Assembly (NCBI GenBank): GCA_963702895.1
Contig: OY969767.1
Location: 2,560,001 to 2,624,000, forward strand
DNA length: 64,000 bases
Direction: 5' to 3'
From: an uncultured Elusimicrobia bacterium
GTDB taxonomy: Bacteria > Elusimicrobiota > Elusimicrobia > 2-01-FULL-59-12
The notes below the pieces were generated by a model. It had not been told where the DNA came from. It searched no databases and saw only the letters and a program-made list of their open reading frames with translations. Shown piece after piece: positions 15,976 through 63,902 of this stretch (position 1 is its first letter; each line of letters opens with the position of its first letter). The translations under genes were made by a program, and so were the position numbers.

Positions 15976-17337
15976 TTATTCAAGAGTGATGCGCGAAAAT
16001 CCAAGGGAGGGCCGAAGCGCCTCGGGGATAACGACGGAGCCGTCCGCTTGCTGGAAGTTCTCAAGGATCGCTGCGAACGTGCGGCCGACGGCGACCCCGG
16101 AACCATTTAAGGTGTGCACAAACTCTTTTTTTCCATCAGCGCGTTTGAACTTGATATTCATGCGCCGTGCCTGAAAATCGGTGAAGGTGGAACAGGAGGA
16201 GATTTCGCGCCACCTCCCCTTCCTCTGTCCCGCGTCCTGTGTCCCGCGTCCCGCGCCTGTCCTGGACTCTGGACGCGAGACTCGGGACTCGGGACCGTCC
16301 TCGGAGGGTTCACCCGGCATCCACACTTCCAAGTCATAGGTCTTGGCGGAGGCAAACCCCAGGTCCCCCGTACACAAAGCGACGACGCGGTAAGGGATTT
16401 TGAGCTTGTCGAGGATTTTTTCTGCGCTTGCCGTGATCAGCTCCAGCGCTTGAAGGGAGTCCTCGGGCTTTACAAACTGGACGAGCTCCACTTTGTTGAA
16501 CTGGTGGTTGCGGATGAGTCCCTTCGTGTCCTGCCCGTAGGACCCCGCCTCGCGCCGGAAGCAGGAGGAATAGCACACGTATTTTTTGGGGAGGTCTTTC
16601 TCATCGAGCACCTCGTCCCGGTGGAGATTGGTGACCGAGACTTCGGCGGTCGGGATGAGATACAGGTTGTCCCGCTCAACGCGGAAGAGCTCTTCTTCAA
16701 AGCGGGGGAGTTGTCCTGTCCCTTGCATGGATTGAGGTGTGACCAGATACGGCGCAAAGATCTCGGTATAGCCGTGCTCCTGGGTATGGACATCGAGCAT
16801 GAAGGTGATGAGCGCGCGCTCGAGCGCTGCTCCCTGGCCCTTAAGCACGGGAAATCCCGAACCCGAGAGCTTCACCCCAGACTTAAAGTCGAGGATGCCC
16901 AACGCCTCGCCGATCTCCAGATGCGATTGAGGGACAAAACCGAACTCCGTTTTTTTGCCGACCTCACGCAGGACTTTATTGTCGGCCGCTTCAGCCCCCA
17001 CGGGAACCGAAGCGTCCGGCATGTTATTGAGGCGCAAAAGAAGATCGTTGAGTTTGGGGTCGATCTCGGCGAGCTGAGCTTCGAGGACTTTGATTTCCCC
17101 CTTTTTGAATTCCACCTCTTTCAGGAGGGGCGCGACGTCCCCTTTCTGGGCCTTCACGCGTCCAATTTGGTCGGCGGACTTGTTGCGCGCGGCCTGCAGG
17201 CGCTCGAGCTCCGCCAGAACCTGACGACGCTCGCCATCCAGGACATAGAGAGTGCCGATATCGAGCTTCGAGCGGCGATGAACGAGCATCTGCTCGAGGG
17301 CTTTCCTGTTTTCGCGGATCCACCGTATGTCAAGCAT
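15976..17337 (-). CDS. serS: Seryl-tRNA synthetase with a ~30-aa repeat-derived insertion
   Basis: MLDIRWIRE, YLIPTAEV, CFRREAGS, HQFNKVE, EISSCS, HTLNGSG. Confidence 0.98.
   Translation of the reverse strand: MLDIRWIRENRKALEQMLVHRRSKLDIGTLYVLDGERRQVLAELERLQAARNKSADQIGRVKAQKGDVAPLLKEVEFKKGEIKVLEAQLAEIDPKLNDLLLRLNNMPDASVPVGAEAADNKVLREVGKKTEFGFVPQSHLEIGEALGILDFKSGVKLSGSGFPVLKGQGAALERALITFMLDVHTQEHGYTEIFAPYLVTPQSMQGTGQLPRFEEELFRVERDNLYLIPTAEVSVTNLHRDEVLDEKDLPKKYVCYSSCFRREAGSYGQDTKGLIRNHQFNKVELVQFVKPEDSLQALELITASAEKILDKLKIPYRVVALCTGDLGFASAKTYDLEVWMPGEPSEDGPESRVSRPESRTGAGRGTQDAGQRKGRWREISSCSTFTDFQARRMNIKFKRADGKKEFVHTLNGSGVAVGRTFAAILENFQQADGSVVIPEALRPSLGFSRITLE
16219..16308. repeat. Heptamer tandem-repeat hairpin (GTCCCGC/GGGACGC type) in frame in serS
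   Basis: Coding strand GTCCCGA GTCCCGA GTCTCGC GTCCAGA GTCC...GGGACGC GGGACAC AGGACGC GGGAC. Confidence 0.9.
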
Positions 17338-17376
17338 CAGGAGCCTCCGAGGGCATCATGAAGGGGATTATAGATA

Positions 17377-17958
17377 TTAGGGGGAGAGGCGGGCGATCTT
17401 CCATGAGCCATCCGTCTTCGTGTAGAGAAAGCGGTCATGCAGGCGGCTGGCACGGCTGCGCCAGAATTCAATTTTTCTTGGGAGGATGCGGACGCCGGTC
17501 CAATGGGGCGGGCGCGGCACGGGCCCCACGCCGAACTTGAGAGCATATTTCGCCACGTCCTTCAAAAGGAGAGCGCGACTGGGAAGAGGCTCACTTTGCT
17601 GAGAAGCCCAGGCCCCCAGTTGCGCCAGACGCGGACGGGTTTCCCAATAAACGTCCGCCTCTCCATCGGAAACAACCTCGGTCTCTCCCTGGATGCGCAC
17701 CTGGCGCTCGAGCGGCACCCAATGAAAAGTCAAGGCTGCTTGAGGTGTCTTGGCGAGGGCCTGGCCCTTCACGGAATGCAGATTGGTATAGAACACGAAA
17801 CCGCGCTCGTCAAAGTCTTTGAGCAACACCATCCGCCCATCCGGGAAACCCTCGAGATCCACCGTCGAGAGGCAGGCGGCCGTCGCGTCCTCGATGCCTT
17901 TCGTGTGCCGCGCCGCCTCAAACCACGCCTTAAATTGTTCGACCGGATTGATCTTCAT
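17377..17958 (-). CDS. pdxH: Pyridoxamine 5'-phosphate oxidase
   Basis: RMVLLK, FYTN, RQVRIQG, AWASQQS, IEFW...RLHDR. Confidence 0.96.
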   Translation of the reverse strand: MKINPVEQFKAWFEAARHTKGIEDATAACLSTVDLEGFPDGRMVLLKDFDERGFVFYTNLHSVKGQALAKTPQAALTFHWVPLERQVRIQGETEVVSDGEADVYWETRPRLAQLGAWASQQSEPLPSRALLLKDVAKYALKFGVGPVPRPPHWTGVRILPRKIEFWRSRASRLHDRFLYTKTDGSWKIARLSP

Positions 17959-18033
17959 GAGAGCCTAGATTATACACGCCGAGAATATTCGATTGATCGA
18001 ATTCTATCGTCGCTGATGCCCGGACTTGATTGT

Positions 18034-18143
18034 CCCCCTCTCCCGCCGTGAGGCGGGAGAGGCTCAGGGTGAGGGCACGCTCGTTAAGCTCGACGAATAT
18101 CTGCCCTCACCCCCGCCCTCTCCCACGTTCCGCGGGAGAGGGA
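18034..18143. repeat. CCCTCTCCC...GGGAGAGGG...GGGTGAGGG double-hairpin palindromic repeat
   Basis: About 41 bp of the reverse complement (18102-18142) is identical to 25828-25868. Confidence 0.9.
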
Positions 18144-18194
18144 GATAATGGGCAAGCCGCGTTGCCGGAAACCTCGAAGACAAGGGAGGCGCGT

Positions 18195-18935: not shown

Positions 18936-20932
18936 TGAACTTCCTTTTCCACTTCTTCCAGGACATGGCTCACCCGCTCCAGAGAGGACCGAATATCCTC
19001 GGCTTGAACCTGCGCTGGCGCGAACTGATAAAGATCGAGCGTTTCCCAAATGTTGCGGATCTTTTCGCCGGAATGATCGCTTAAGCCCCGCGCTTTGAGG
19101 GCATCGACAATCTGCTTCAGGGACCTCGTGCGCGTGCCGATCCCGAGTTTGGCGGCAAGATATTCCTGCAGCACATTGGCCAGGTGGCTGCCGGCTCCCT
19201 TCATGTCCCGACGGGACAAGCACTCTTCGGTCTTTCGGATATCGCCCTGGGCTCGTTCAAAGGCCTTCCGAAATCTGTATAAGGCGGTGTTGGACATAAA
19301 AAGCCGGAAGTAGAGACGCGCCGCTCCACCGAGAGCGAGCAGCCCGACCAGAATAAGGTGAAGCACCCTGTACCAGGTTCTTCGGTACAGTGGTTCGCCC
19401 GCGGACGAGATCGAATCCGGGGTGTGAATGTAGCGGATATCCTCCCCCAGTCTCTTGATCCCTGGCTGGGCGAATCCGGAAAGCGGCGCCCCGGATGCCC
19501 CAGCGGGACCCACGACCCCCATGGAGCCGTCCGGTGCGGGCGACACATGGACCACCAGGGGTCGCGAGCGTGCGGTGCGATAAGCATGCTCGGAAAGGTC
19601 AAAATACGTAAAGGAAATCTGCGGGATCGTGAGATCACCCGAAGCCGTGGGAATGAGAACGGTCTTGAACACCTTGGAGCCTTCCACGGTGCCCTCTTTT
19701 TTCTCGATGTTGGTGGCCGCGCTCGCGTCAAAGGTGCGGAAATTGGTGAGGGACGGAAGCGGCAGGTCAGGGATCGACTTGATATGCCCGCGCCCCGCGA
19801 TCGTCAAGGAGAGCGTGAGCGGCTGGCCCACGGCAATTTTGGGCTTGTCGACCTGCGCGGACAGAGAGTAGGTTCCGACCGCGCCGCTAAAATCCGCAGG
19901 CTTCGGCGACGGGAGGGCCTTGACGTGGATGGAGATGGGTTCGGTGCGCAGCTCCTTTTCTTCGCCCCGGCCAAAAAATTGTGCAAAGAAATTGCTCCCA
20001 AAAGGATCCGTGCCGAAATTCTCGAGGTTCACGTTCAAACGCGCCGAACCGATCTGCGACTTTCCAGGCGCGCTCGGGAAAAGAGCGGTGCGGACCTCCG
20101 TGACGTTATAGGGCATCCCTTTGTAGCTGGTCGTAAAATTGCGCTGGGGCGGAAGGTCTTCCGTCCAGAAGCCTGTCATCTCAGGCGGCTGATAGCGGGG
20201 CTGGCTGAGCAGTGGCACACGGTTGAAGAGCCTGAACGTAAAGACAAGCGGTTCGCCGACATAAACAGACGCCTTATCGACTGTCCCCGCGATAAAGACA
20301 GCGTGTGCTCCTTGTCCTGGAGGGGCCGGGCGCGCGGCGCCTTCGGGACGCGCAGAACCTTGGACCGCAGAAGGATCGCCGCGCGTCACCACCAAGGCGA
20401 GCGCGGAAGATTCCACGGTTTGTCCCTGCTCGCTCACGCGCACGGGGGGAATGTTGAACTGCCCTTCTTTCGAAGGCGTCAGGACAAAATTATGCGTGAC
20501 GTTGGAAGACGCTTTGCCATTGATCCAGGTAAAGTTCTGAGAACGCCCGGCGTTGTAAACCTGAAAATCCGGCAGAGCCGGCAATTGCGGGTCCGGCAGA
20601 TTGCCGCCCGCGCCCGAAACGGTGACGGAAAGCACAGCCTGTTCGGTTGTGGTGATTGGGTTGCGATCGAGACTCGCCGAGACCTGCAGGTCACCCGCTT
20701 GAGCATGGCCTGCACAAACGATCAGCCATCCCGCCATCATCAGTGGCGGGACGAATCGGCGAACCGGCGAACCGGCGAACCGGGGACACGGCGTCACGGA
20801 GTAACGGTGTATCGGGGTATCGGGGTATCGGCTGTGACTCCGATACTCCGATACTCCGACACCCCGACACCGGTTTTCCGCCGATACGCCGACGCGCCGA
20901 CTCGCCGATTCGATCCTGTTACCAGTCTTCAT
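18923..20932 (-). CDS. batD: BatD oxygen-tolerance family protein
   Basis: BatD Ig-like repeats (VDKASVYVGEP, FSGAVG); MKTGN start overlaps the batC end DEDW*. Confidence 0.88.
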   Translation of the reverse strand: MKTGNRIESASRRVGVSAENRCRGVGVSEYRSHSRYPDTPIHRYSVTPCPRFAGSPVRRFVPPLMMAGWLIVCAGHAQAGDLQVSASLDRNPITTTEQAVLSVTVSGAGGNLPDPQLPALPDFQVYNAGRSQNFTWINGKASSNVTHNFVLTPSKEGQFNIPPVRVSEQGQTVESSALALVVTRGDPSAVQGSARPEGAARPAPPGQGAHAVFIAGTVDKASVYVGEPLVFTFRLFNRVPLLSQPRYQPPEMTGFWTEDLPPQRNFTTSYKGMPYNVTEVRTALFPSAPGKSQIGSARLNVNLENFGTDPFGSNFFAQFFGRGEEKELRTEPISIHVKALPSPKPADFSGAVGTYSLSAQVDKPKIAVGQPLTLSLTIAGRGHIKSIPDLPLPSLTNFRTFDASAATNIEKKEGTVEGSKVFKTVLIPTASGDLTIPQISFTYFDLSEHAYRTARSRPLVVHVSPAPDGSMGVVGPAGASGAPLSGFAQPGIKRLGEDIRYIHTPDSISSAGEPLYRRTWYRVLHLILVGLLALGGAARLYFRLFMSNTALYRFRKAFERAQGDIRKTEECLSRRDMKGAGSHLANVLQEYLAAKLGIGTRTRSLKQIVDALKARGLSDHSGEKIRNIWETLDLYQFAPAQVQAEDIRSSLERVSHVLEEVEKEVQWKN
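20752..20912. repeat. Nested octamer tandem-repeat hairpin in the batD 5' coding region
   Basis: CGAATCGG CGAACCGG CGAACCGG...GTATCGGG...CCGATACT CCGATACT...TCGCCGATTCG. Confidence 0.92.
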
Positions 20933-21659
20933 CTCGTGTAGGCACTCCTGGCTTGGCTGCTTGCTGATTCCCTTTCTTCTTCTCATTGGAAGCGGCGGCG
21001 GAAAGAAGCCTCTCCGCATCTTCCTTGCTCATTCCGCCTTCGCGCGAGGCTTCGGCGGACGAGTTGTCCTTCTTTCCGGATGACGCGCCTTTGTTCTGAT
21101 CCTGCTTGGGCGGCTTGCCCGCCGAAGCTTTAGCGGAGGCGGGAGGGTTTTTCATCGCCTTGAGCGCAACGCCCAAATTATACTTTGCGTCCTCGTCTTG
21201 CGGGTTGGCGCGCAGGCTGTCTTTGAAAGCCTCGACGGCTTCTTCCCACTTGCCCTGATAAAAGAGGGCGTTCCCCCGATTGTAGTGGCTCGCGCCGCGC
21301 AGGATGGGGTTGGCCGATTTGGCTGCTTCAGTAAAGGAAACCTCTGCTTTCGGGAATTCCCCCATCATCATCGTGGCGTCCCCGGCGTTGAAGTGGAGGA
21401 TGGCGGAATACGGCGCATCAATGAGGCCGTCCTGATAGAGCTCGAGCGCCCTCTCGTAATGGCCATTCTTAAACTGGCGGTTGCCTTCCTTGAGCTGAGA
21501 CGGGGAGGCGCCAAAAGCAGGGGGCAGGGGGCACAGGAGAGGGAACAGGAGAAAAATGCCAAAGCAGACCGACGAAAGCAAAGAATGGAAAGCAGAGCGT
21601 TTTGCTTTCGCTTCTCTGCTTTCGTTTCTCTGCTTTGATCGTTCAGCTTTCCTGTCCAA
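20919..21659 (-). CDS. batC: BatC-like TPR protein (TTG start, uncertain)
   Basis: HYNRGNALF, DAKYNL, MSKEDAERLL and C-terminal EDW. Confidence 0.85.
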   Translation of the reverse strand: MDRKAERSKQRNESREAKAKRSAFHSLLSSVCFGIFLLFPLLCPLPPAFGASPSQLKEGNRQFKNGHYERALELYQDGLIDAPYSAILHFNAGDATMMMGEFPKAEVSFTEAAKSANPILRGASHYNRGNALFYQGKWEEAVEAFKDSLRANPQDEDAKYNLGVALKAMKNPPASAKASAGKPPKQDQNKGASSGKKDNSSAEASREGGMSKEDAERLLSAAASNEKKKGNQQAAKPGVPTRDEDW

Positions 21660-21699
21660 GGCCGTTCCCTTTCCCCTTTCCCCTGTCCTCTATTCCCTG
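21518..21699. repeat. Nested heptamer hairpins (AGGGGAA outer, AAAGCAG inner) spanning the batB stop and batC signal peptide
   Basis: Purine-rich and pyrimidine-rich 7-bp repeat arms that are reverse complements of each other. Confidence 0.85.
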
Positions 21700-22709: not shown

Positions 22710-22738
22710 CTATTCCTCATCATTTAGATCGCTTACGC

Positions 22739-22953
22739 CGTCATTCCGGCGAAAGCCGTCCCCCTTACGACCGGGGGACTGTCCCTTCCTATGATCTCTA
22801 GGGATGGGGACGGAATCCAGAACAGCATCGACGAACTGGACCCCGGGTCTCCACAAGACCGGCGACCCTCCGCCACACGACAGGCGGAGAGCGCCGGGTG
22901 TGTGGCGCTCGGCCCGCCGGATGTGTGGAGGGCCGGCTTTCGCCGGGGTGACG
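22739..22953 (+). repeat. GTCATTCCGGCG...GCCGGGGTGACG palindrome with two nested inserts
   Basis: Base element plus a 54-bp insert at 22758-22811 and a further hairpin insert at about 22845-22934. Confidence 0.9.
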
Positions 22954-22963
22954 ACTTTGGAAC

Positions 22964-23956: not shown

Positions 23957-23971
23957 ATTCCTTTACCCTGT

Positions 23972-24052
23972 CGTCACCCCGGCGGATTGTAAGCCGGGGT
24001 CTATCATGGATGTTAAATGCCACGGTGGATCCCGGCGTTCGCCGGGATGACG
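23972..24052. repeat. GTCA(C/T)CCCGGCG palindrome, simple form
   Basis: CGTCACCCCGGCGGATTGTAAGCCGGGG...GGATCCCGGCGTTCGCCGGGATGACG. Confidence 0.9.
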
Positions 24053-38560: not shown

Positions 38561-40026
38561 CAGCTTTCCTCCGATGAAAAGACCTTCTTGAAATAATCGG
38601 CTTCCTGCGCGGCATCTTCTGGAAATGCGGTCACGCTGTAAGTGAGAGACGCTCCTGATCGCTGGAGCCGCCGGGCGAGGTCTTTTCTGGCCGTTTCCAG
38701 CACGTGGTTGGCGATCCTCTCCGCCTCGCGCTTGACCGTGCTTTGCAACCCGACATAGAGGGCATCAACGTCTCTGACCACAAGATCGCTCATGCGTCCC
38801 GTAGAACGCCGCACCAAGTTCTCGAGCTCGCTCAAGAGCCCCGCCATCTCGAGGCTCTCTTTCGAATCCTCCCCTTGTAATTGGAAAGTCACGGCGGAGA
38901 GGCTCCCGCCCCGCCTTGCCACATCATGAAAAAGCGTCGAGAGTTGTTCAAGAAAGACGGTCCGTCCTGATTGCCTTGGCAGAGCAAACACGATGCGGGA
39001 GCCTTGGCCAGCCCCGCCACTTTCTGCCCAAATACGACCCTTATGAAGTTCGACAATGCCGCGCGAGATGGACAGCCCAAGCCCTGTACCTTTTTCGCCC
39101 GTAAAGGAGGCGTGCCCCAACTGCTCAAATTTCACAAAGATCTTCTCCAGGTCCTGCTGGGAGATGCCGATGCCGGTGTCCGAAACGCAGCACACCGCCT
39201 CGTTGGGGTGACTGATGATTTCAATCTGAATATGCCCCTTTTCCGTGTATTTGAAGGAATTGCCCACCAGGTTGGTGACGACTTGGACAATTCGGTCGCG
39301 GTCGGCATAGACGCTCACGGGCCCTGCGGGCGTTGTGACACGGAGGTCGATCCTGCGATCTTCTGAGAGCGCCTGAAAGGCGCTCGCGACATCGCGCGCG
39401 ATCGCACTCATATCGAGACGCTGGCGCTTCAGTGTGATTTTCCCGGATTCGATCTTGGAGATGTCTAAGAGGTCGTCGATCATCCTCCCCATGCGCTCAA
39501 TGCCTGAGAGCGCCAGCGTCAAAGCGCGCTTCTGGGCCTCATTGATTTCTCCTCTTAGGCCTTCCGAGACCTGAGAGATCCCTTCACGAATCACCGTCAT
39601 GGGCGTGCGAAGCTCGTGCGAGACATTCGTGACAAACTCCTGCTGCAGGTTCTGGAGGCGCTTGCGTTCCTCGATATCGTGAAAAAGCAGGCAGGCCAGT
39701 TCCCGGTCATCGGGCTTGACCCGATAGGCGACGATGTCCACTTGGACGGCGCGCCCCGTTCCGGACTGCACTTGGAACTCGAAGGCGAAATGACCACTCG
39801 TGCGGATTTCTTTCCAAAGCTCCTTCCATAGAACGGGGACCATTTCCGGCGCGATGTGAAAGATGTCCAGACGGAAGAGCTGCTCGGGGCTCTGGCCGAG
39901 CGTCCGCAAGGCGCTCTCGTTGGCGAAGAGGGCATGCCCCTCCGTATCGAGACATAAGAGGCCCTCTGAGGTTTTCTCCGCCACGAAATGAGAGAGGGCC
40001 ATTTTTTCTTGCGCGGAAAGGGTCAT
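38560..40026 (-). CDS. PAS sensor histidine kinase with degenerate GGDEF-like C-terminus
   Basis: VSHELRTPM H-box, NLVGNSFKY, DTGIGI, GTGLGL; ATGA overlap gives start 40026. Confidence 0.92.
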   Translation of the reverse strand: MTLSAQEKMALSHFVAEKTSEGLLCLDTEGHALFANESALRTLGQSPEQLFRLDIFHIAPEMVPVLWKELWKEIRTSGHFAFEFQVQSGTGRAVQVDIVAYRVKPDDRELACLLFHDIEERKRLQNLQQEFVTNVSHELRTPMTVIREGISQVSEGLRGEINEAQKRALTLALSGIERMGRMIDDLLDISKIESGKITLKRQRLDMSAIARDVASAFQALSEDRRIDLRVTTPAGPVSVYADRDRIVQVVTNLVGNSFKYTEKGHIQIEIISHPNEAVCCVSDTGIGISQQDLEKIFVKFEQLGHASFTGEKGTGLGLSISRGIVELHKGRIWAESGGAGQGSRIVFALPRQSGRTVFLEQLSTLFHDVARRGGSLSAVTFQLQGEDSKESLEMAGLLSELENLVRRSTGRMSDLVVRDVDALYVGLQSTVKREAERIANHVLETARKDLARRLQRSGASLTYSVTAFPEDAAQEADYFKKVFSSEES

Positions 40027-41194: not shown

Positions 41195-42503
41195 GGATTA
41201 GGTAGAAAGGAATACAGGCCGCCATCATGCCGATGCCGCCGAGGGCGGCGTTTCGGTCGTTGCGGATTTCGTGAAAGACCATCCAAAGAACCGTCACAAT
41301 GAAAAGAAAGGGTAGCACAGGATACCCCCAGGCCTTGTAGGGGCGCGGTAAATCAGGCTGGGTCCTGCGCAAATGATAGAGAGCGCTCACGGTGACGGCA
41401 TTGATGAGAAGGCTTGGGACGGTCACATAGTCGTCCAGTAGCCTGTAGAAATGGGAATGGTCAAGCCCGCCCCAGAGCGCAAGCACAGCCGCCCAGAGGG
41501 TGATAAAGAGAATGGCATTGGACGGCGTCCGAAAGCGTGGATGCACAGCGCCAAACAAAGGCATAAGATCGCCTCGCTCGGCCATCGCAAAGGGAATGCG
41601 CGGCGCCGTCAAGAGGGTTGCATTCAGACATCCCAGAATAGAAAAGGCAATAAAGAATGAAACTCCGTTGGCGATCGTGGGAGAAAACATCCTGCTTGCC
41701 GCTTCCTTGGCGATGGCAATCACCCCTCGCATCTCCCCGGACGGCATGGCGTAGAGATAAACCACGTTGAGCAAGAGATAAAGGACCGCCGTGAGAAGAA
41801 CGCCGCTCAAAAGGGAAACCGGTATGGTGCGTTCGGGGTTCTTGACTTCACTGCCCACGTACACGGTGGCATTCCAGCCGCTATAAGTGTACATGATGGG
41901 GATGAGCGCCATGGCGAGGCCCTCGAGGAGGGGAGGGGAGGACCCTGGGGCCAGACGGAAGAGGGGCTCTGCATTCGAGAGGCTGCCTTGGCCCAGAGCT
42001 GCGCCTATGGCGGCAAAGCCAAGGATCGCGACAACTTTGATGGTCGTAATGGCGTCAACAACACCCGCACCCACTTTGACCCCGAGATAATTGAGCGCTC
42101 CAAAGAAAAGGATCAATCCAACCGCGGTGATTTGGACATAAAGCGGATTTTGGATGCCTGCGTATTTCGTAAACCCGACCGCCAGAATAGCAATGGTGCC
42201 GGACTGGGTGATAAACGTCGCGGACCACCCATAAAGAAATCCCCAAAAAGGGCCGTAGGCCTCACGCAAGAATTGGTAATTCCCCCCGGCTCGGGGGTAG
42301 GCCGCGCCGAGCTCCGCGTAAGAAAGCGCCCCAGCCAACGCCAGCATGGCCCCTAGGACCCAAGCGAGGAGAACCCAGCCGCTGGTCGGCAAGAGCGTGG
42401 AAATGCGGCCTGGCGTCGTAAATATACCCACGCCAATCATGTTGCCGATCACGAGCATCGTGCAGGAAAAGAGGCCCAAAGCTCTACGTAACTCGTAACT
42501 CAA
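41175..42503 (-). CDS. APC-family amino acid permease
   Basis: GNMIGVGIF, YAELG...PRAGG, YSGWN, EVKNP, RPYKAWGYP. Confidence 0.93.
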   Translation of the reverse strand: MSYELRRALGLFSCTMLVIGNMIGVGIFTTPGRISTLLPTSGWVLLAWVLGAMLALAGALSYAELGAAYPRAGGNYQFLREAYGPFWGFLYGWSATFITQSGTIAILAVGFTKYAGIQNPLYVQITAVGLILFFGALNYLGVKVGAGVVDAITTIKVVAILGFAAIGAALGQGSLSNAEPLFRLAPGSSPPLLEGLAMALIPIMYTYSGWNATVYVGSEVKNPERTIPVSLLSGVLLTAVLYLLLNVVYLYAMPSGEMRGVIAIAKEAASRMFSPTIANGVSFFIAFSILGCLNATLLTAPRIPFAMAERGDLMPLFGAVHPRFRTPSNAILFITLWAAVLALWGGLDHSHFYRLLDDYVTVPSLLINAVTVSALYHLRRTQPDLPRPYKAWGYPVLPFLFIVTVLWMVFHEIRNDRNAALGGIGMMAACIPFYLIHDRKKS

Positions 42504-50194: not shown

Positions 50195-51565
50195 TTAAGA
50201 TTTTGTTCCTGAGCGGATCTCTTGAATGATCTTGTTCACGAGGGCTGTAAAAAAAGGGTCCTGCTCCAGGCGGCTCTTCACTTTTTGGGTCGCGTGCATG
50301 ACCGTGGTGTGATCTTTCCCGCCAAAACATTCACCGATCTGCGTGGTGGACATATCGGTTAGCGTTCGGGTCAGGTACATCGCGATCTGGCGCGGGAAAG
50401 CGATGGCGTCTGTACGCCGCTTGGACCGCATGTCGTGAAGTTCCAGATGATAATGATGGGCTACCACTTCCTGAATCTTTTCAATGGAAACTGGGGCCGC
50501 CGCGTCTTCGCGGGCCATCACGTCACGCAGCACCGCCATCGCAGAGTCCACGGTCAGAGGGATGCCGGTCAGCGACGCATGAGCCACCACGCGCGTCAAA
50601 GACCCTTCTAGCTCCCGGATGTTGGAGCGAATGTGGCTTGCCAGAAAGAGCAACACATCATCCGGCACAAAAAGACTCTCCGCTTCCGCCTTATCACGCA
50701 AGATCGCGATGCGCGTCTCAAGCTCCGGCGCCTGGATGTCCGCCACGACCCCCCATTCAAAGCGGGTGATCAGACGCTCCTGTAGGGTAGGGATCTCCTT
50801 CGGAGGCCGGTCGCTTGTGATCACGATCTGTTTACGGGAGTCATAGAGGGTATTAAAGGTATAGAAAAACTCTTCCTGGGAACTTTCCTTATTAACGAGG
50901 AACTGAATATCATCAATCAGGAGGCAATCAAGCCCACGGTATTTCTGGCGGAACTGATTCATCTTCTCAAATCGAAGCGAATCGATAAATTCATTGATAA
51001 ATTTCTCAGAGGAAGTGTAGAGCACGCGCGCGCGGGGGTTGGCCTGCAAGATGTGATGGCCAATCGCATGCATCAAATGGGTTTTCCCAAGCCCCACCCC
51101 ACCATAGAGGAAGAGAGGGTTGTAGGCCTTGCCAGGGTCCTTCGCGACAGCCTGGGAAGCGGCTTGGGCAAATCGGTTCGAGTGGCCTACCACAAAGGTG
51201 TCAAACGTATAGCGGGAGTTTAAGTACGTTTCGATGGAAGGCCCCGCAGGCGCGGAGGTCGTTACGGAGGCAGGCGCCGGGACTGATGCTGGCGACTGGA
51301 GGAGCTCCTCGACCGGTCGAAGGACGGTAAAGGAGAGGGCAATGGACTGGCCAGAGCGCTCTTTTAAAAGGGTCTCAATATTAGATTGGTAATGATCGCG
51401 CAGCCAATCCGCGAAGAAGGTGTTCGGGACCTGAACAACCAGACGTCCCCCTTCCAAAGAGATGGCTTTTACGGGTCGAAACCACAAATCGAACGATTCG
51501 TCGTTCATTTGCGGCTTCAAAACGGACAAGACATCTTCCCACAAATTCTCTACGACTACAGTCAT
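50195..51565 (-). CDS. dnaA: Chromosomal replication initiator
   Basis: YNPLFLYGGVGLGKTHL, LIDDIQF, NIRELEG, GGKDHTTV; SD GGAG before ATG 51565. Confidence 0.99.
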   Translation of the reverse strand: MTVVVENLWEDVLSVLKPQMNDESFDLWFRPVKAISLEGGRLVVQVPNTFFADWLRDHYQSNIETLLKERSGQSIALSFTVLRPVEELLQSPASVPAPASVTTSAPAGPSIETYLNSRYTFDTFVVGHSNRFAQAASQAVAKDPGKAYNPLFLYGGVGLGKTHLMHAIGHHILQANPRARVLYTSSEKFINEFIDSLRFEKMNQFRQKYRGLDCLLIDDIQFLVNKESSQEEFFYTFNTLYDSRKQIVITSDRPPKEIPTLQERLITRFEWGVVADIQAPELETRIAILRDKAEAESLFVPDDVLLFLASHIRSNIRELEGSLTRVVAHASLTGIPLTVDSAMAVLRDVMAREDAAAPVSIEKIQEVVAHHYHLELHDMRSKRRTDAIAFPRQIAMYLTRTLTDMSTTQIGECFGGKDHTTVMHATQKVKSRLEQDPFFTALVNKIIQEIRSGTKS

Positions 51566-51609
51566 GTAAAACTCACTCCATCCGGGAATAGAACAGGAAG
51601 GACGTAAAA

Positions 51610-52470
51610 TTAATCGCGCCGTATTGTAGACGTTGGCGTACGGGTTGTCAAATCTGTTTCTCGACGGAAAATGGACCAAGGAACAGCCAATCGCGCGTAA
51701 TCCGCAAGGCCAATGGTTTCAGCGCGCAGACTTGGACGGATGCCGTGCAGAGCCAGCCATTTTTCAACTTCGGCGCGCTGGCAGCCGCAATGAAAAGCGA
51801 GGCTGTTGGCAATCGTTTTACGGCGGTGCGCGAACGCCCCATGGGCAAGATCAAAAAAGGCGGCCACGCCTTCATGGCCTATCAGAGGTTTTGTTTTTCG
51901 GCGCAGGCGAATGACGCTGGAGCTAACCCGCGGCGGCGGCAGGAACGCTCCAGGTTTCACCGCACAGACCATTTCCGTGTCCGCGAAGAGCTGGACCGCC
52001 AGGGTCAGGATCCCATAGTCGCGCGATCCTTCCCGGGCAACGATGCGTTCCGCGACTTCGCGCTGGATGAGAAACACGCCGATCTGCCACCCTGGCCAAG
52101 CCATAATCTTTTCAAAGATGGGAGACGTGATGGAATACGGCAGGTTCCCCAGGACCTTCAGCGGCCTCCCCGGCGCGTGAGGCAGAGCAGGATCTTGTGC
52201 CAGGACGGCCAGGTCCACCTTCAAGATATCGGCGTGAATAATTTGGACCCCAGGAGTGCCTTCCAGCCGTTTTTGCAGGCCTGACGCGAGCGCCTCATCA
52301 AGCTCTACAGCGATCAGGCGGCCTACGCGCTCAGAAAGAGGGAGGGTGAGGACCCCTTTGCCAGGGCCGATTTCCAGCGCGGCGTCTTCTCTCGAAAGTT
52401 CAGCCGCCGCCAGGATGCTGTTCACCACCTTGGGGTCGCGAAGGAAATGCTGGCCGAGCCGTTGTCTCAC
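51610..52470 (-). CDS. rsmA: 16S rRNA dimethyladenosine transferase
   Basis: LGQHFL, LEIGPGKG, GNLPYSIT, QREVAER, RRKT. Confidence 0.97.
   Translation of the reverse strand: MRQRLGQHFLRDPKVVNSILAAAELSREDAALEIGPGKGVLTLPLSERVGRLIAVELDEALASGLQKRLEGTPGVQIIHADILKVDLAVLAQDPALPHAPGRPLKVLGNLPYSITSPIFEKIMAWPGWQIGVFLIQREVAERIVAREGSRDYGILTLAVQLFADTEMVCAVKPGAFLPPPRVSSSVIRLRRKTKPLIGHEGVAAFFDLAHGAFAHRRKTIANSLAFHCGCQRAEVEKWLALHGIRPSLRAETIGLADYARLAVPWSIFRRETDLTTRTPTSTIRRD
51623..51651 (-). promoter_or_regulatory. Sigma70 promoter for dnaA inside the rsmA 3' end
   Basis: TTGACA (51646-51651), 17-bp spacer, TACAAT (51623-51628). Confidence 0.85.
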
Positions 52471-53354: not shown

Positions 53355-53365
53355 GAAAGATGGGT

Positions 53366-53447
53366 GTGATTAAGTAATGAAGTGATTGGGCGATTCAGAG
53401 GAGAGGTCCCATCCCCTAATCACGAAATCACCCAATCGCCGAATAAC
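53366..53447. repeat. Octamer tandem-repeat hairpin, intergenic
   Basis: GTGATTAA GTAATGAA GTGATTGG GCGATT...AATCACGA AATCACCC AATCGCCG AATAAC. Confidence 0.82.
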
Positions 53448-56472: not shown

Positions 56473-56490
56473 CCATTGTTTCCTTATGGA

Positions 56491-59400
56491 TTAGCGGAGT
56501 GATCCAAACAGGTCCCGGAGATAACGCAGTGGACCGCTGGATTCATAGGCTTGTCGTTCGAGGATCAGCGTAAAAGGAGGGCCCGGTTTAAAGCGTAAGC
56601 CGGAACGCTCCTGGGCGAGTTGCACCAGACGCGCGGGAGCAAGCGGTGTATTTTGGAGAAACCTGATCTCAAGCGAGGAAGGTTTCTGGACAATGCCATC
56701 AATACCCAGATCTCGGGCCGCCATGCGGAGCTCGGAGACTTCCAAAAGCGTTTGCGCTTCGTTCGGGAGAGAACCAAAGCGGTCTTCGAGCTCCCCTTTG
56801 ACCGCGGAAAGCGCTTCGGAGCCCATTGCGGACACCAGTTTCTTGTAGAAAAGGACGCGCAATTCTTCGCTGGGCATGTATTCCGCTGGCAAAAAGGCAT
56901 GCACGGAGAGGTCCAGGCTGGGGAATCGCACAGGCGGAGGCGCGACCTCCCCTTTGAGACGCGACATTTCTTCCTGCAGGAGTTGAGCGTAGAGATCGAG
57001 ACCCACGGCGGCAATGTGGCCATGCTGCTGCTGTCCTAAAAGGTTGCCCGCGCCACGGATCTCCATGTCGCGCACGGCCAGTCGGTAGCCGCTGCCCAGC
57101 TCCGTAAACTCCCGCAGCGCTTCAAGGCGGGCCCTCGCCTCCTGAGTGAGCGGGACCGACGGCGAATAGAACAGGTAACAGAACGCCTTTTGCCGTTCTC
57201 GTCCCACGCGGCCCCTGAGCTGATAGAGTTGGGAGAGGCCAAAGTCTTCCGCTTCCTCGACGATCAAGGTGTTCGCCGATGGGATGTCGATGCCGGACTC
57301 GATGATCGTGGTGGCCAGTAAGACCTCGTGTTTTCGGTGCGTGAACTCCCACATCACTTTTTCGATCGCGGGGCCCGCCATCTGCCCATGCACGACCCCG
57401 ATGGAGACCCCCGGGAGGAGCTGTTTGAGGAAATGCAGTCGCGTATGAAGAGACTGCACGCGGTTGTGAACGTAAAAAACCTGGCCTTTGCGTTCCAGCT
57501 CCTTTTGGATGGCCTGGAACACCACCGCATCCTCGTAGGGGCCGACATGTGTCGTAATAGGGAGGCGTCCTACAGGCGGTGACTCAATGATGGAAAGCTC
57601 CCGCATGCCGGACAAGGCAAACGAAAGCGTTCGGGGGATGGGGGTCGCCGTTAGGGTCAGGACATCCAGGCGCTCCCGCAGTTTTTTGATCTGCTCCTTA
57701 TGCTTGACGCCAAAGCGGTGCTCCTCATCGATGATCAAAAGCCCCAGATCATGAAACAGCACATCCTTTTGCAGCAGCTTATGGGTCCCCACCACAATGT
57801 CCAAGGCCCCTGAGACAAGCGCGGCGAGCGTCTCCTTTTCCTCTTTGGCGGACTGAAAGCGCGAAAGCATCCCAATACGCGCAGGGTAGTCGGCGAAGCG
57901 CTCGGTAAAGGTCCGGAAGTGCTGCTCGGCAAGGATCGTTGTCGGCACGAGCACCGCGACCTGCTTGGAGTCCGTGATCGCCTTCATGGAAGCGCGCATC
58001 GCGACTTCCGTTTTGCCGTATCCCACGTCTCCCAGGATGAGGCGATCCATCGGCTTGGTGGACTCCATATCCGCTTTGACTTCCGCAATGGCCCTCGCTT
58101 GGTCCAGGGTCTCTTCATAAAGGAAAGAGCTGGCAAATTCCTGCTCCAAGTGCGAATCCGCGGGGAAGGCATGGCCCGGCAGCGCTGCCCGCGCGGCATG
58201 AAGCTTGAGAAGGTCCCGCGCCAACTCCTGGATGCTTTCTTTGACGCGGGCTTTCACGCGTTCCCAGCTGGACGTATCGAGCGATGAGAGTCGAGGCGAA
58301 CCTCCTTCCGAACCGGAATACTTTTGGACTTGTTTAAAGTCGTACAAAGGGACATAGAGACGGTCGCCCTTCGCGTATTCAAGCTTGAGGTATTCTGCAT
58401 CGTGTCCACCGGCATGCAGGAGCTCAAGGCCGCGGTAGCGGCCAATCCCGTAATACTCATGCACCGCGTAATCGCCGGGGCGTAAGTCCTGGATTTCTCG
58501 GAGCGCTCCACCGCCTTTAAATTTCGGGAGACGCGGGCGGTGGCGATAGCGACCGAAAATCTCGGAGTTGGTCACGACGAAAAGTCTCGCGTCTTGGGCC
58601 CCGCGTCTTGCATCCGAAGACAGACTCGAGACTTTGGATTCGGGACGCGAGACAAAAAATCCAGAACGGAGCGGCCCTACGAGAAACTCCATACCCTTCG
58701 TGCCATGCGAGCCCAAGCGTTCTTCCAGAAGCTCCTGGAGGCGCTCGCTTTCGCCGGCGTTGTGGCTGAAGAAGAGGACCCTGCGATGATCCGCTACCGC
58801 TTTGCGCGCCTCTTGCGCGGCGAGTTCGATACCGGACACAAGACCCGTCGTGGACTTGAATCCCAAGTCCATTGCACCGGGAGGCGGCAGCCCGCGGTAA
58901 ATGATCGTACCGGCGAGCGGGCGAGTCGGCGAGCCGGCGCGAGGCGATTCCGTTATGTCGCCGGTCCGCCGATTCGCCGATCCGCCGTCCCGGGGATCGA
59001 TCTCGTCCCAAAACCACACCACTCCCTCCGGGACGAATTCGGCGAGATGACCGGCAGGCTTGTTTTCCTTGAACGGGAAAAGCTTTTGTGGCCCGAGGTA
59101 GACTTCAGACCGCTGAGTACCCGGGCTGAAAGTTCGGACTGATTCGAGCGTATCACCATCAAAAAGAAGCCGCCAGGGCTTCTCTATGGAGGAGGGCCAG
59201 ATATCGACCACCTCGCCACGGACGGCGATCTCCCCTTCCATTTCCACCATATCGGTCCGGGAGTAACCCCCTTGAGCGAGTCTCTCAAGGAGTTGTGTCC
59301 GCGGATAGAGTTGACCCGGGCGCAGTTCCAGCGTCAAGCCTTGGAGCTGCGTTGGTGTGTAGACCTGTTTTTCAAAAGAGCCCTGGGAACAAAGAAGAAT

Positions 59401-59712: not shown

Positions 59713-61340
59713 CGACTGAGCTTCAAAACGCGTAAATCGGCAACACGGACGCGGTCGGGACTGTCCGTGCCTGCGGCCGCAAAGATATACCGGGCAGGCT
59801 CTGGCTCCATCGGAAGACAGGAAAAGAAAGCTTCACCTTTCACATTGGTGATCGCTGTCCCTTGCCGCTCGCCAAAGCCAATGGGGCTAAAACAGCCGTA
59901 ATACACTTTCCGTTTGTCGATCGGATGACGGGACCCATCCTGAACGCGGACCACGAATTCCAACGTCCCATTTTTGGGGGTCGAGGACCGGGGTTCGACG
60001 CTGATGGATTCTTGGGGAACTCCCGCAAGAAATGAAATCTCCTTGGCGGCGAGGACCGACTCGTTTTTGTCGAACGCCTGCAGCATCACGCTCTGGCGAC
60101 TTTTCGCCAGTTTAGGAAGTTTGATAAATCCCTGGAACCAGCCGCGCCTTGAGCCGTCCAGAAGCGCCCAATCACCGTGATTGAGGCTATAGCGCACAGA
60201 CTTGACCTTCTCAGACGTGGTGACCTGGATGCTGATCGGCCCCTCAATCGGATATGAGTGGTTTGCCTTCGGCTCGATGGGAATCAAATGGTGGTACGTG
60301 GTGACGTCGCGATAAATTTGTCGGGGCACGCCGTTCATGTCCTGAGGGCTATCGGTCGGGATGCCCAAGATGCCGTTCCATTCCCAGGGTTCGTTGTCAT
60401 GAACGTCTGGATCTTTGGGGTAGTGCCAGGTATCAATCCAAGACACGAGCACACCCCCCTGCGCATGGCCTTCCACAAGAGCGCGCAGGCTCTCCAGATC
60501 TTTGAGGCTTTGATCGTATTCGCTCAGGCCTCCGTGGCCGCCGAAGGCCGTTTGGCTCGCTTCTGAGACGGCGTAGCCCCCCGTTTCCCCGATGATCAAA
60601 GGCTTGCTTTGAGCTGCGCTGTCCGCAAACCAGCGCGTCATGCCCGCCATCCCCATCGCCTGCACAAGCGACTTTGGCCAAAAGCCGAATAGGTTCATCG
60701 TGACAAAATCGAAATGCTGGTGGTCCATGAAAGCCAGCGGCGGCCAGCTGTCCATCGAGACAGGGCGCGGGTCGATCTCTTGGACCGCGCGCTTGAGACG
60801 CCGGAAAAATTGCTCGGTCTCCCCCACCCCTGTTTCAAGAACAGCTTGCGGCGCAGGCTCGGTCATAAGCAGGTAGCCCAGCACATTGTCAGCGCTCTTC
60901 GATTGCTCCGCCACCCCGCGCGCCTGCGCGATGGCGCTTTGCTGGTTGTGGGGATCGGAAAAGTCCTGTTTAGGGTCTAGCCAAACCCCTTGCAGCACCA
61001 TCAGACCATGGGCTTTGGCGAGCGAGAGCTCATCCGGTCCTAGGGCATCCCAGGTCCGCACGACATTGAAGTGGGCTTTCTTGATACGCTCGAAATCCAT
61101 TTTCGTGTAACGGTAATTGGTGTCGGTGTAGGACACGCCCGGACGCTGATGCGGTCGCCAGGGCGCATAGCCCACGCCTCGCACGAAGAAGGGCTCGCCG
61201 TCAACATAAAACCGGCCCTCACGGATTTCAACGCGACTTGATCCGAGCACGAGCGAAGAGTGAAGGGCGAAGAGGAATAGGAGCAGAACCCAACGAGCGC
61301 CCTTCGCCCTTCTCCCTTCTGCTGAAATGCGTCTGTTCAT
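59709..61340 (-). CDS. Secreted glycoside hydrolase-like protein (GH2-type TIM barrel plus Ig-like domains)
   Basis: FYVDGEPFFVRGVGY, FNVVRTW, MTEP, IIGETGG. Confidence 0.75.
   Translation of the reverse strand: MNRRISAEGRRAKGARWVLLLFLFALHSSLVLGSSRVEIREGRFYVDGEPFFVRGVGYAPWRPHQRPGVSYTDTNYRYTKMDFERIKKAHFNVVRTWDALGPDELSLAKAHGLMVLQGVWLDPKQDFSDPHNQQSAIAQARGVAEQSKSADNVLGYLLMTEPAPQAVLETGVGETEQFFRRLKRAVQEIDPRPVSMDSWPPLAFMDHQHFDFVTMNLFGFWPKSLVQAMGMAGMTRWFADSAAQSKPLIIGETGGYAVSEASQTAFGGHGGLSEYDQSLKDLESLRALVEGHAQGGVLVSWIDTWHYPKDPDVHDNEPWEWNGILGIPTDSPQDMNGVPRQIYRDVTTYHHLIPIEPKANHSYPIEGPISIQVTTSEKVKSVRYSLNHGDWALLDGSRRGWFQGFIKLPKLAKSRQSVMLQAFDKNESVLAAKEISFLAGVPQESISVEPRSSTPKNGTLEFVVRVQDGSRHPIDKRKVYYGCFSPIGFGERQGTAITNVKGEAFFSCLPMEPEPARYIFAAAGTDSPDRVRVADLRVLKLSR
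61245..61323. repeat. Heptamer hairpin forming the signal-peptide region of the GH2-like gene
   Basis: Coding strand GGGAGAA GGGCGAA GGGCG...TTCGCCC TTCACTC TTCGCTC. Confidence 0.82.
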
Positions 61341-61933
61341 TTTTTTCTCATGAGCAGGCTGTAGCTCTTTGGCTTTCGGGGGCCTTCGAACACCCCTTCC
61401 CGTAGCTTGAGGATATGAAATCCTGGGCGAAAGAGCTCCTCCAGCTCTTGTCGCGAAAAACGGAAGGGACCTTCGGTCCCCGGCTCTTGGTCACTAAAGA
61501 CTCTCAGCCCATAGAGACCTCCCGCGCGAAGGACACGCTTGACTTCGGCGATCGCCTGGGGACGATCTTCCGGCGACAGGACATGAAAACACCCACGGTC
61601 ATAAGCGAAGTCAATGAACTGATCTTCTACAGGAATTTGTCGGATGTCGCCGATTTGGAAAAACCCAAAGACGCCCGCTGCAGAAGCGGTTTCGCGCGCC
61701 AAGGCGATCGCTGCGGGACTGATATCGATACCGATGACGTTAAAGCCCTGCTGGATCAAGTAGACGGCATCATGACCGGGACCCGTTCCCATATCCAAGG
61801 CCTGGCCCACCGGGATCTCGCCGGAACGGACCCAGCGGACCAAGTCCGGGTCCGGCCCTCCGGAGTTCCACGGCAAATCCCCAGGAGGGGTTTTAAGATA
61901 CACATCCTCCCAATGCTCGTCGTTAAAAGGCAC
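61337..61933 (-). CDS. Class I SAM methyltransferase (TPMT-like)
   Basis: ALDMGTGPG, GIDISP, YDRGCFH. Confidence 0.88.
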   Translation of the reverse strand: MPFNDEHWEDVYLKTPPGDLPWNSGGPDPDLVRWVRSGEIPVGQALDMGTGPGHDAVYLIQQGFNVIGIDISPAAIALARETASAAGVFGFFQIGDIRQIPVEDQFIDFAYDRGCFHVLSPEDRPQAIAEVKRVLRAGGLYGLRVFSDQEPGTEGPFRFSRQELEELFRPGFHILKLREGVFEGPRKPKSYSLLMRKK

Positions 61934-62348
61934 GGCGGTGTTCCTGATAGATGCATTTGTTCATCACCACCTGGAGGCCGGCAGATCGCGCCCGGTTCGC
62001 GGCTGCATTATGAACAATGCCTTGCTGCATCCAAATCACTTTGGCCTTCTTGGCGATCGCTTCCTCCACAATGGCAGGTACGGCGGACGGCTCCCGGAAG
62101 AGGTCGACAATATCGACGGGCTCGGGGATCTCGCTTAAGCTTTTGTAGCACTTGTCTCCCAGGATTTCAGTATGCCCAGGGTTCACCGGGATCACTTTGT
62201 AGCCGTGTTCCTTGAGATAAATCGAAATCCAATGCGACGGCCGCTCAGGCTTCAGTGACGCGCCAATCACCGCGATCACTCTCGATTCTCGGAGGATCCT
62301 TGCGATCTCTTCGGGAGCCGCGTTTTCTTTCGGGAATTCACATTCCAT
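61923..62348 (-). CDS. CoA-binding protein (YccU-like)
   Basis: IAVIGAS, VIPVNP, VDIVDLFR, WMQQG, VVMNKC. Confidence 0.9.
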   Translation of the reverse strand: MECEFPKENAAPEEIARILRESRVIAVIGASLKPERPSHWISIYLKEHGYKVIPVNPGHTEILGDKCYKSLSEIPEPVDIVDLFREPSAVPAIVEEAIAKKAKVIWMQQGIVHNAAANRARSAGLQVVMNKCIYQEHRRAF

Positions 62349-62504
62349 ACGAAATTCTTTCAAGTCAGAATAAACAGACGGCGGAATAGACGGACGTCAG
62401 AAAAACCGACACAGCGGCCATCATGAATCGAATCCTGCCTCCAGGCATTTCCGCCTCTTGTATAGCCCGCCGTCCGCTTTTTCTGCCCCCCGTCTTTTCT
62501 GTGG

Positions 62505-63902
62505 TCACTTGAATGTTAATTTTACCGCGGTTTCGATGTGGGGTGTGTGCGGGAATAAATCCACCGGCTGAATTTCCTGAGCCCAATAACCGCCTTTCGT
62601 CAGAACGCCAAGATCCCGGGCGAGGGTCGCGGGGTCGCAGGAGACGTAAACGAGGGGAGAGGGGCGAAGGGCGACGAGCGACTTCAGAACCGAAGGCGTG
62701 CAGCCGGAGCGCGGCGGATCGACCACGACCGCCAGAGGCCTTCGGTCGTGAGCAAGGCCTCCCAGGAAGGCCTCCGCGGACTTCGCGATAAAGCGGGCGT
62801 TATCAATGTTGTTAAGCTCGGCATTCATTTCGGCATCACGGAAGGCTGCCGGGAATTCCTCCACTCCGCCGACCTCCTGAAAGCCGTCGGCGAGCCACAA
62901 AGCGATGGTTCCAACGCCGGTGTAGAGGTCCAGGAGCCGCTCGCCGCGCCCCGCCATCCCTTGGATCACGTTATAGAGGATCTCCGCCTGCGGGCTGTTC
63001 ACCTGGAAGAAGGCGCCCGGCGAGAGCCGAAAGCGCAGCCTCCCGAGCCGCTCTTCCAAATAATCCTGGCCATGAATCTTTCGCCACTGGCTTCCGAGGA
63101 TCACGTTCGTGCGAGCGGGCTGGATGTTCTGGTGAATGGCGACGAGGTTAGGACATTCTCGAATAAGGACTGGGATGATCTCTCTTTCTTTGGCAAAAGA
63201 AGGGTCGCGCGTGACCAGGATGAGCATAGCCTTGCCGTCCTGGGACGTGCGAAGCAGAAGGTGCCGGATCCATCCAAGATGCCGTTTGGGATCATAGGCA
63301 TGCACGCCCAGCTTTTTGAACAGCTCCAGCGTTCGTTGGATGATCTTCACTGACAGCTCCGACTGCACCAGACAATCCTCGACGGGCACGATGTCATGCG
63401 ACCCTTCGCTGTAGAAGCCGGAAATGAGCGCCTGCCCGTTCCAGCCCACGGGTTGCTGCACCTTGTTGCGATAACGCCAGGGATCTTTCATGCCCAAAAC
63501 AGGCTTGACGGTGATGCCGGAGAGTCCCCCCAGGCGCTCCAGGGTTTCCTGAACAATGGCTCTCTTGGCTTCCAGCTGGGAGGGGTAGGGCAGGTGTTGC
63601 CAGGAGCAACCGCCGCACCAAAGACCAGGGACGACAGATGAGGAGCCAGAGATGACGGACGAGGAACCGGGAACACGAAAGTGATAAGGGCAAGGAGGGT
63701 CGACTCGCGCGCCGGAGGACTCCGTGATTTTTAGAATGCGCGCGCGCGCGAAACGTTTGCGGAGGTCTGTGATCTGCGCTTCGAGGGTGTCGCCGGGAGC
63801 CGCGTAGGGGACAAAGACAACCCTTCCTTCCGTGCGGGCAACACCTTCCCCCCCGCTCGACAAGCGCTCAATACGAAGACGTATGCGTTCACCTTGACGC
63901 AT
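62505..63902 (-). CDS. rlmD: 23S rRNA m5U1939 methyltransferase with insertion in the Fe-S motif
   Basis: TRAM domain, CGGC, AFFQVN, VVDPPRSG, YVSCDPATLARD, DLFPHTPHIE. Confidence 0.95.
   Translation of the reverse strand: MRQGERIRLRIERLSSGGEGVARTEGRVVFVPYAAPGDTLEAQITDLRKRFARARILKITESSGARVDPPCPYHFRVPGSSSVISGSSSVVPGLWCGGCSWQHLPYPSQLEAKRAIVQETLERLGGLSGITVKPVLGMKDPWRYRNKVQQPVGWNGQALISGFYSEGSHDIVPVEDCLVQSELSVKIIQRTLELFKKLGVHAYDPKRHLGWIRHLLLRTSQDGKAMLILVTRDPSFAKEREIIPVLIRECPNLVAIHQNIQPARTNVILGSQWRKIHGQDYLEERLGRLRFRLSPGAFFQVNSPQAEILYNVIQGMAGRGERLLDLYTGVGTIALWLADGFQEVGGVEEFPAAFRDAEMNAELNNIDNARFIAKSAEAFLGGLAHDRRPLAVVVDPPRSGCTPSVLKSLVALRPSPLVYVSCDPATLARDLGVLTKGGYWAQEIQPVDLFPHTPHIETAVKLTFK
63624..63679. 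repeat. Single-arm heptamer tandem repeat in frame in rlmD
   Basis: ACCAGGG ACGACAG ATGAGGA GCCAGAG ATGACGG ACGAGGA ACCGGGA ACACGAA. Confidence 0.75.

Follow-up and report, generated by a model that had tools for sequence, protein, structure and literature searches.

The repeat arrays of the window

The stretch of DNA analysed here, referred to as the window, spans 64,000 nucleotides (positions 2,560,001 to 2,624,000 of contig OY969767.1, assembly GCA_963702895.1) of an uncultured Elusimicrobia bacterium. Several of its genes, among them serS, batD, mfd and rlmD, contain tandem arrays of 7- or 8-base units, mostly arranged as two inverted arms around a loop. These hairpins, and their relation to small genes for four-helix-bundle proteins (TIGR02436/PF05635) found elsewhere in the same genome, are the subject of this work. 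The host genome is a single contig of 2.72 Mb with 57% GC and 98% completeness, and the closest named relatives of its seryl-tRNA synthetase (SerRS) are Elusimicrobiota. It is labelled G000 (contig C1) and was compared with ten relatives, including G001, G003 and G008, whose assemblies are fragmented and whose proteins are about 70–85% identical to those of the host. Window genes are labelled according to NCBIfam, except for batD and the "GH2-like" gene, which have no NCBIfam match and keep the names of a first-pass annotation. That annotation had listed eight arrays, all of which were found:

16227–16295, minus strand: serS heptamer hairpin of the GTCCCGC family, encoding a predicted disordered loop of SerRS; net +66 nt compared with the 42-nt state of three relatives
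20752–20912, minus strand: batD nested octamer hairpins, outer family CGGCGAAC, inner family GTATCGGA; in frame in the leader
21517–21698, minus strand: batB/batC nested heptamer hairpins, outer GGGAAAG, inner AAAGCAG; over the batB stop and the batC signal peptide
53365–53444, no strand: surA-pdxA intergenic octamer hairpin with a GTGATT-type unit containing stop codons
58584–58653, minus strand: mfd degenerate heptamer hairpin of the GTCCCGC family; segment of 174 nt versus 114 nt in four relatives
58912–58992, minus strand: mfd octamer hairpin of the CGGCGAG family; a similar one in G003, REP-like (repetitive extragenic palindromic) hairpins or nothing in other relatives
61251–61320, minus strand: "GH2-like" gene heptamer hairpin of the AAGGGCG family; basic n-region and part of the signal-peptide hydrophobic core
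63621–63677, minus strand: rlmD single degenerate heptamer arm; +57 nt compared with G003

The recurrence of unit families and their nesting one in another were borne out. The two-arm layout proposed for the arrays holds for all but rlmD, which is a single arm and not a hairpin. Six of the hairpins fold with z-scores of -2.3 to -6.8, the mfd hairpin at 58584 folds weakly (z -1.7), and the rlmD arm shows no fold (z +0.9). In batD, the hairpins follow the conserved overlapping ATG at 20932 and precede the hydrophobic core, and the surA-pdxA spacer segment measures 120 nt, compared with 29–54 nt in four relatives. The serS unit is identical to the arm unit of a four-helix-bundle cassette (described below) at G000:497149, and the inner batD unit matches the arms of another one at G000:730107. 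A further tandem-repeat match in rlmD, at 62652–62682, was ruled out as an insertion, orthologues being equally long there.

The possibility that the arrays are assembly artefacts was checked for batD in a single DNA sequencing run (X1), which holds 8% of the words of the genome and may not be independent of the assembly. One 253-nt contig of this run covers 20707–20959 with zero differences, so the array stands, and we consider the chance that the window arrays are artefacts practically negligible. A metagenome scan for strain-level variants gave no match above 80% identity.

Orthologous sites are empty, filled or refilled

Comparison with the relatives agrees with the earlier description of a dispersed, lineage-specific element that adds peptide segments, since empty sites were found for serS (+66 nt here), mfd (+60 nt) and rlmD (+57 nt). 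The serS site is a six-residue turn in 57 of 58 more distant anchored SerRS sequences, while within the family it comprises 6, 14, 18, 34, 36 or 38 residues. In G008, it holds a different, octamer hairpin, the unit of which is that of G008's own cassette. The AlphaFold model of SerRS has a mean predicted local distance difference test (pLDDT) score of 86.4, and only residues 347–370, between the strands 332–340 and 375–385, fall below 50; the insert is thus modelled, at low confidence, as a loop separating two strands, and confidence is otherwise high. The sites in mfd, rlmD and cinA are empty in some relatives and filled in others by different tandem families or by REP-like hairpins, and are therefore tolerant sinks for any hairpin element. 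Lengths at these sites are multiples of three and free of stops in every case: 26/26 anchored loci for serS, 10/10 at each of the two mfd sites, 3/3 for rlmD and 8/8 for cinA. Inspection of the empty and filled sites by eye revealed no consistent target duplication, at the protein identity of about 70–85% that separates these genomes.

Of the seven coding cases, six bear out the statement that all inserts keep the frame. The exception is the batB/batC junction, where the stretch is 330 nt long (0 mod 3) in the host versus 2 mod 3 in 8/8 relatives. The overlapping batC start of the relatives is absent here (21646–21692), and the gene follows batB in the same frame after a TAG codon. Owing to the changed frame, the coupled start of batC has been lost; translation would begin at the TTG at 21659, within an arm, unless the change is a one-base assembly error. 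The claim that the element is actively generated receives indirect support only, and the closest relative has a hairpin similar to one of the two in mfd.

REP-like hairpins lie on both sides of a DUF559 gene (G000:C1:1904956-1905273); by eye, their type is the one found in the batC leader and the mfd loops of the relatives. This arrangement looks like a parallel gene-plus-hairpin system.

A genome-wide set of hairpins

A scan of the entire genome confirmed a dispersed set of period-7/8 inverted arrays far above chance. Arrays of period 7 (244) and 8 (229) are about ten times as frequent as those of periods 5, 10, 11 and 13 (19, 33, 25 and 22, respectively), and an inverted partner or a self-palindromic sequence was found for 252 of the 342 stronger arrays, compared with 1/342 random controls. 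Genome-wide gene models came from a simple purpose-made caller (2208 genes, 87% coding), and gene starts are therefore approximate; genes outside the window (ileS, valS, proS, dnaX, gltD, argD, cinA and others, recA excepted) were named by reading their translations. Merging yielded 166 hairpin loci, about one third of which lie inside genes (59 loci in 46 genes, for example serS, ileS, valS, proS, dnaX and mfd). The others are found at junctions of co-oriented genes including gene ends (83), at convergent (12) and divergent (11) junctions, and one is unplaced.

The hairpins belong to well over a dozen unit families, octamers among them, and families are mixed in 27 of 228 clusters. Arm polarity is fixed within each family, with only three reversals among 237 paired arms. 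In the main octamer family (37 hairpins, after removal of five paralogous copies from 42), the modal arm has four units (34/74 arms); among runs of at least three units, 75/126 have four, and the typical arm consists of four units and part of a fifth. Core positions within the units recur, while the loops differ from copy to copy. Given the scrambled order of the units and the unique loops, copies must be either old and scrambled or built singly. Adenine-specific variation of the kind made by diversity-generating retroelements (DGRs) was considered from column counts and rejected by eye, as the heptamer families vary at C and G also. A short GC-rich hairpin is nested within heptamer hairpins at G000:C1:544142, 975625 and 2224476, and a similar one occurs in the cinA insert of a relative (L111).

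Four-helix-bundle cassettes share units with the hairpins

The genome contains ten TIGR02436/PF05635 genes, nine of which have detectable arms, forming a cassette composed of a repeat arm, the small gene and an inverted arm. All ten lie between protein or tRNA genes and none in rRNA; the window hairpins carry no such gene. A link of the arrays to these four-helix-bundle genes had been suggested, and it holds in the host genome: of the 317 arrays located away from cassettes, 201 differ by at most one mismatch from the unit of a resident cassette, compared with a mean of 14 and a maximum of 29 arrays matched by nine random foreign cassettes. The analogous suggestion for GxxExxY proteins failed, such genes not being found in the 98%-complete genome.

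The three cassettes compared in this respect are gains at junctions where the relatives have none: they are absent at gltB|gltD in 6/6 syntenic relatives (a seventh is not syntenic), at argB|argD in 7/7 and at livF|cinA in 7/7. All ten relatives carry genes of the family, 39 in total, and in a tree of 47 proteins (two short rows of the 49 were left out) related proteins carry, by eye, related units in four well-supported clades. We take the family to be kin to the DGR protein Avd. Its only significant match in the PDB is XCC0516 (2gsc, five chains, E-value 6e-14), which passages of PMC4990558 describe as a homopentamer, mentioning also tandem heptamers that precede the S23p gene.

Individual cassette sites show further features. 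One junction is occupied in both G000 (C1:1185167-1185484) and G001 (L066) by cassettes of different clades and units, which suggests repeated colonisation. In cinA (G000:C1:2081333-2082715; L060), the N-terminus is translated from the downstream arm of a cassette, and the gene has an internal hairpin as well. Within a sensor-kinase cluster of the window, two genes meet in a clean stop/start overlap at 40023–40026; at the same junction, three relatives of different genera (L132, L133 and L134) have a diverged four-helix-bundle gene.

A promoter-like motif common to recA and the cassettes

The motif TGAATA-N14-GCATCTAA was found upstream of 31/49 cassettes, compared with 28/1992 genes and 10/3000 random windows. 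In the host, it also precedes toxin-antitoxin-like genes, a remnant of a Y1 transposase and recA, for which it is present in 8/9 genomes of the family and in 0/21 outside it. The sites are the following:

G000:C1:1328866, promoter-like motif of recA, with about 30 other sites (loci L297–L326)

The motif could be an alternative-sigma stress promoter, presumably similar to sigma-E promoters, and its sites may belong to a stress regulon specific to the family. Several sigma factors are encoded in the genome (nine matches).

Selection on frame, stop codons and mRNA folding

A view of frame-keeping as a property of the element itself is not supported. It is explained instead by selection on the translated inserts, that is, by survivorship, and relatives have unrelated REP-like hairpins at these positions that keep the frame as well. 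The distribution of stop codons leads to the same conclusion: unit families that bear stop codons are missing from gene interiors (0/21 loci, versus 51/129 for other families; p 1e-4, with 16 loci of one paralogue cluster left out). In the main octamer family, the TAA variant accounts for 4/54 units of the sense 5′ arm, 23/64 of the mirror arm and 14/57 at junctions, so that it is depleted only in the arm where the mRNA reads TAA. Among the six frames, 69% are open in hairpins inside genes and 41% in those at junctions. The density inside genes relative to the rest of the genome is 0.20 versus about 0.14 expected from the frame and stop filters alone, a difference that is not decisive. The purging of stops and the in-frame lengths together argue against removal of the inserts from the RNA.

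Hairpins also fold more weakly on the mRNA strand than on the antisense strand, both inside genes (46 versus 11) and at junctions (60 versus 21), in comparison with 135 versus 154 for controls. Replication strand was rejected as the cause, because the bias tracks transcription on both strands and is present on lagging-strand genes too (26 versus 11). The bias fits selection against strong mRNA stems; a repair bias acting on extruded hairpins is possible as well.

Hairpins as signal peptides

Leader regions are a recurrent location of the arrays. At a score threshold of 8 or more, a period-7/8 array was detected in the leader of batD at 12/14 loci (two of them identical), of batC at 7/16, of batE at 5/11 and of the GH2-like gene at 5/9, and in none of five surA loci. 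The repeat family varies from genome to genome, and relatives use REP-like hairpins as well. For the batD signal peptide, almost every relative has built its own version out of another repeat family. In 16/18 strongly skewed hairpins, the purine arm is the first one and encodes Lys/Arg, while the mirror arm encodes Phe/Leu/Ser/Cys, which is why a hairpin can serve as an export signal. In a crude hydropathy test (p 0.01), a hydrophobic N-terminus was found for 12/16 gene starts with a skewed array, 704/1685 without array and 16/47 with a balanced array. Hairpins of this kind steadily supply essential genes with new protein sequence.

Origin of the hairpins

We assign a probability of about one half to the reading that the hairpins are gene-less, non-autonomous members of the four-helix-bundle cassette system, filtered by selection. 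We infer its mechanism, the binding of the arms by the protein and mobility itself. The four-helix-bundle protein, a pentamer by homology, would grip a single-stranded arm over four to five units, and host enzymes, perhaps of recombination or repair, would place short arm-loop-arm pieces at new sites. Enzymes of this kind are suspected because the cassettes and recA have the promoter-like motif in common; no enzyme for the system was found in the genome. Slippage could afterwards reshuffle the units, and selection would retain those copies that are translated harmlessly and pair weakly as mRNA.

Several results weigh against this reading. The resident-cassette match fails in the relatives, where 3/41 arrays at the host sites match a resident cassette versus 4.2 by permutation (p 0.58), or 3/24 versus 2.4 expected after collapsing, in fragmented assemblies. 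Among the window hairpins, only serS, mfd 58584 and inner batD have a clear resident cassette. The covariation of cassettes and arms is no proof of recognition, because both are inherited together, and cassettes could land in pre-existing hairpins. A direct trace of copying is absent: the median longest stretch shared between loci of the main octamer family is 26, versus 25.8 in unit-shuffled controls, and long shared loops are limited to the two tuf copies, paralogous genes, tandem copies and duplicated blocks. The idea that a gene-less hairpin is the footprint of a lost cassette was rejected, as a same-unit hairpin was present at the relatives' cassette sites in 0/13 syntenic pairs, two of them weak matches (34 of the 39 relatives' cassettes entered this test and five were left out). 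Finally, the folding bias depends on the family (30:3 in the main octamer and 24:13 in the main heptamer family) and two purine/pyrimidine hairpins of the window show the opposite bias.

A possible alternative is growth in situ, in which short seeds expand by slippage and template switching, with four-helix-bundle genes settling in, or targeting, hairpins already common. Unique loops and unit order would follow from it, as would the likeness of neighbouring units (17% alike versus 11% by chance in the main octamer family), the unequal arm lengths of the two tuf copies and the occurrence of single arms such as that of rlmD; the missing enzyme and the failure of the resident-cassette test in relatives also speak for it. 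Template switching predicts, however, that the arms of one hairpin resemble each other, and unit identity is lower to the own partner arm (3.9%) than to arms of other loci (11.3%; p about 0.0015). Growth in situ also leaves unexplained the fixed polarity, the sharp four-unit mode, the few dominant families per genome and the empty sites without seeds.

We regard it as unlikely that the arrays are host-maintained sites for regulators or nucleoid proteins, or regulatory RNAs, as passages of PMC2700814 propose for Geobacter metallireducens. The recurrent core positions, the differing loops and a strand bias that tracks transcription are compatible with such a function, but occupancy is not conserved, each relative being empty or having another family or a REP-like hairpin at the site. 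This is the pattern of tolerated insertions, which counts against regulatory sites.

Still less likely, in our view, are copies of the MITE (miniature inverted-repeat transposable element) or REP type moved by an insertion sequence (IS) or REP-associated tyrosine transposase (RAYT), or by a group II intron reverse transcriptase, and since decayed. Candidate genes exist, namely the Y1-transposase remnant, an open reading frame (ORF) of 84 aa, an IS1380 family transposase gene in the window (8757–10103) and three reverse transcriptase genes in the genome. On the other hand, loops and internal sequence are not shared between copies, and no consistent target duplication was seen by eye. The reverse transcriptases were rejected as the generator, all three genes having the same length and lacking arms in the surrounding stretches inspected, and so was Y1/RAYT, of which only the 84-aa remnant was found, likewise without such arms around it (no genome-wide DDE search was made). 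The reverse transcriptase genes are located at G000:C1:230277, 463860 and 1962540 and have the appearance of group II intron copies; the sequence upstream of them resembles, by eye, a group II intron start.

Excision or splicing of the inserts from mRNA, giving proteins without them, is highly improbable: the protein family and the stem layout do resemble the ORF-bearing intervening sequences that, in passages of PMC4990558, are excised by RNase III, but RNase III cutting does not religate according to the same source, every internal site length examined is a stop-free multiple of three, stops are purged from the sense strand, and arms encode signal-peptide cores that are needed.

The reading of the hairpins as gene-less members of the cassette system can be extended, doubtfully, to a new class of mobile DNA, in which a pentameric four-helix-bundle protein would count four to five units, each hairpin would be built afresh and a stress promoter would be shared with recA. 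Equally doubtful, taken jointly, are its further elements, that the protein acts without a nuclease or integrase of its own and that each variant seeds its own repeat family. If true, this extension would supply proteins with new loops and ready-made signal peptides, and would explain the excess of heptamer repeats in bacteria, the function of S23p/PF05635 and the origin of ORF-bearing rRNA intervening sequences. Heptamer repeats and S23p/four-helix-bundle proteins have both been without explanation so far. With a complete genome, ten cassettes and arm words covering about two-thirds of the arrays, the questions of binding and of the promoter are directly testable.

Comparison with known systems

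The short tandemly repeated repetitive sequences of cyanobacteria are dispersed heptamer arrays. Arrays inside genes, inverted pairs, in-frame palindromes, a MITE signal peptide and heptamers beside an S23p gene are all already known. The closest parallel to the arrays is provided by G. metallireducens (Aklujkar et al. 2009, PMC2700814), for which passages of the paper describe 49 intragenic and intergenic sites with four tandem heptamers each, and paired arrays of four octamers and five heptamers on opposite strands at variable distance. As here, these are dispersed 7/8-base tandems, often of four units, in inverted pairs and inside genes. They differ in that they were interpreted as regulator sites or regulatory RNAs; those passages show no analysis of empty sites or frame, and the term "helix bundle" does not occur in the main text.

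The GGGAATC heptamers of Xanthomonas and the G-rich heptamers of Nostoc (Rehm et al. 2015, PMC4692102) are, in the passages concerned, dispersed with a four-unit preference, many of them in convergent inverted pairs and some in genes. In contrast to the arrays described here, they consist of one G-rich family per genome, mostly intergenic and interpreted as quadruplexes, and the units of the present genome differ by eye from GGGAATC and GGACCGG.

Rickettsia palindromic elements (RPEs) and MITEs are reported in parts of Delihas (2008, PMC2229807) as stem-loops translated in conserved proteins, one Yersinia MITE forming part of a signal peptide. The hairpins are like RPEs in being in frame in conserved genes and in having empty orthologous sites. 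RPEs, as characterised there, are sequence families of 105–146 bp with terminal inverted repeats, whereas the hairpins are made of tandem units and have neither loop, unit order nor conserved internal sequence in common between copies. The conserved 20–40-bp palindrome and the intact, flanked RAYT of REP and REPIN (REP doublet) systems were not encountered.

The cassettes themselves resemble the ORF-bearing 23S intervening sequence of Coxiella, in which, according to passages of PMC4990558, S23p (PF05635) lies in a stem with tandem heptamers adjoining the gene; both have a PF05635/TIGR02436 gene inside inverted arms. They differ in lying between protein genes, often with a promoter-like motif of their own, and the gene-less forms are translated, unlike the excised 23S intervening sequences. 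A literature search, with most subscription journals outside its reach, found no paper tying dispersed hairpins to cassettes beyond the Coxiella 23S element.

Other features of the window

Two exact heptamer copies are found at the start of an amino-acid transporter gene (42487–42501), too short for a judgement. The dnaA gene is located at 50195–51679, and the minimum of the cumulative GC skew lies near contig position 660, about 110 kb away from it.

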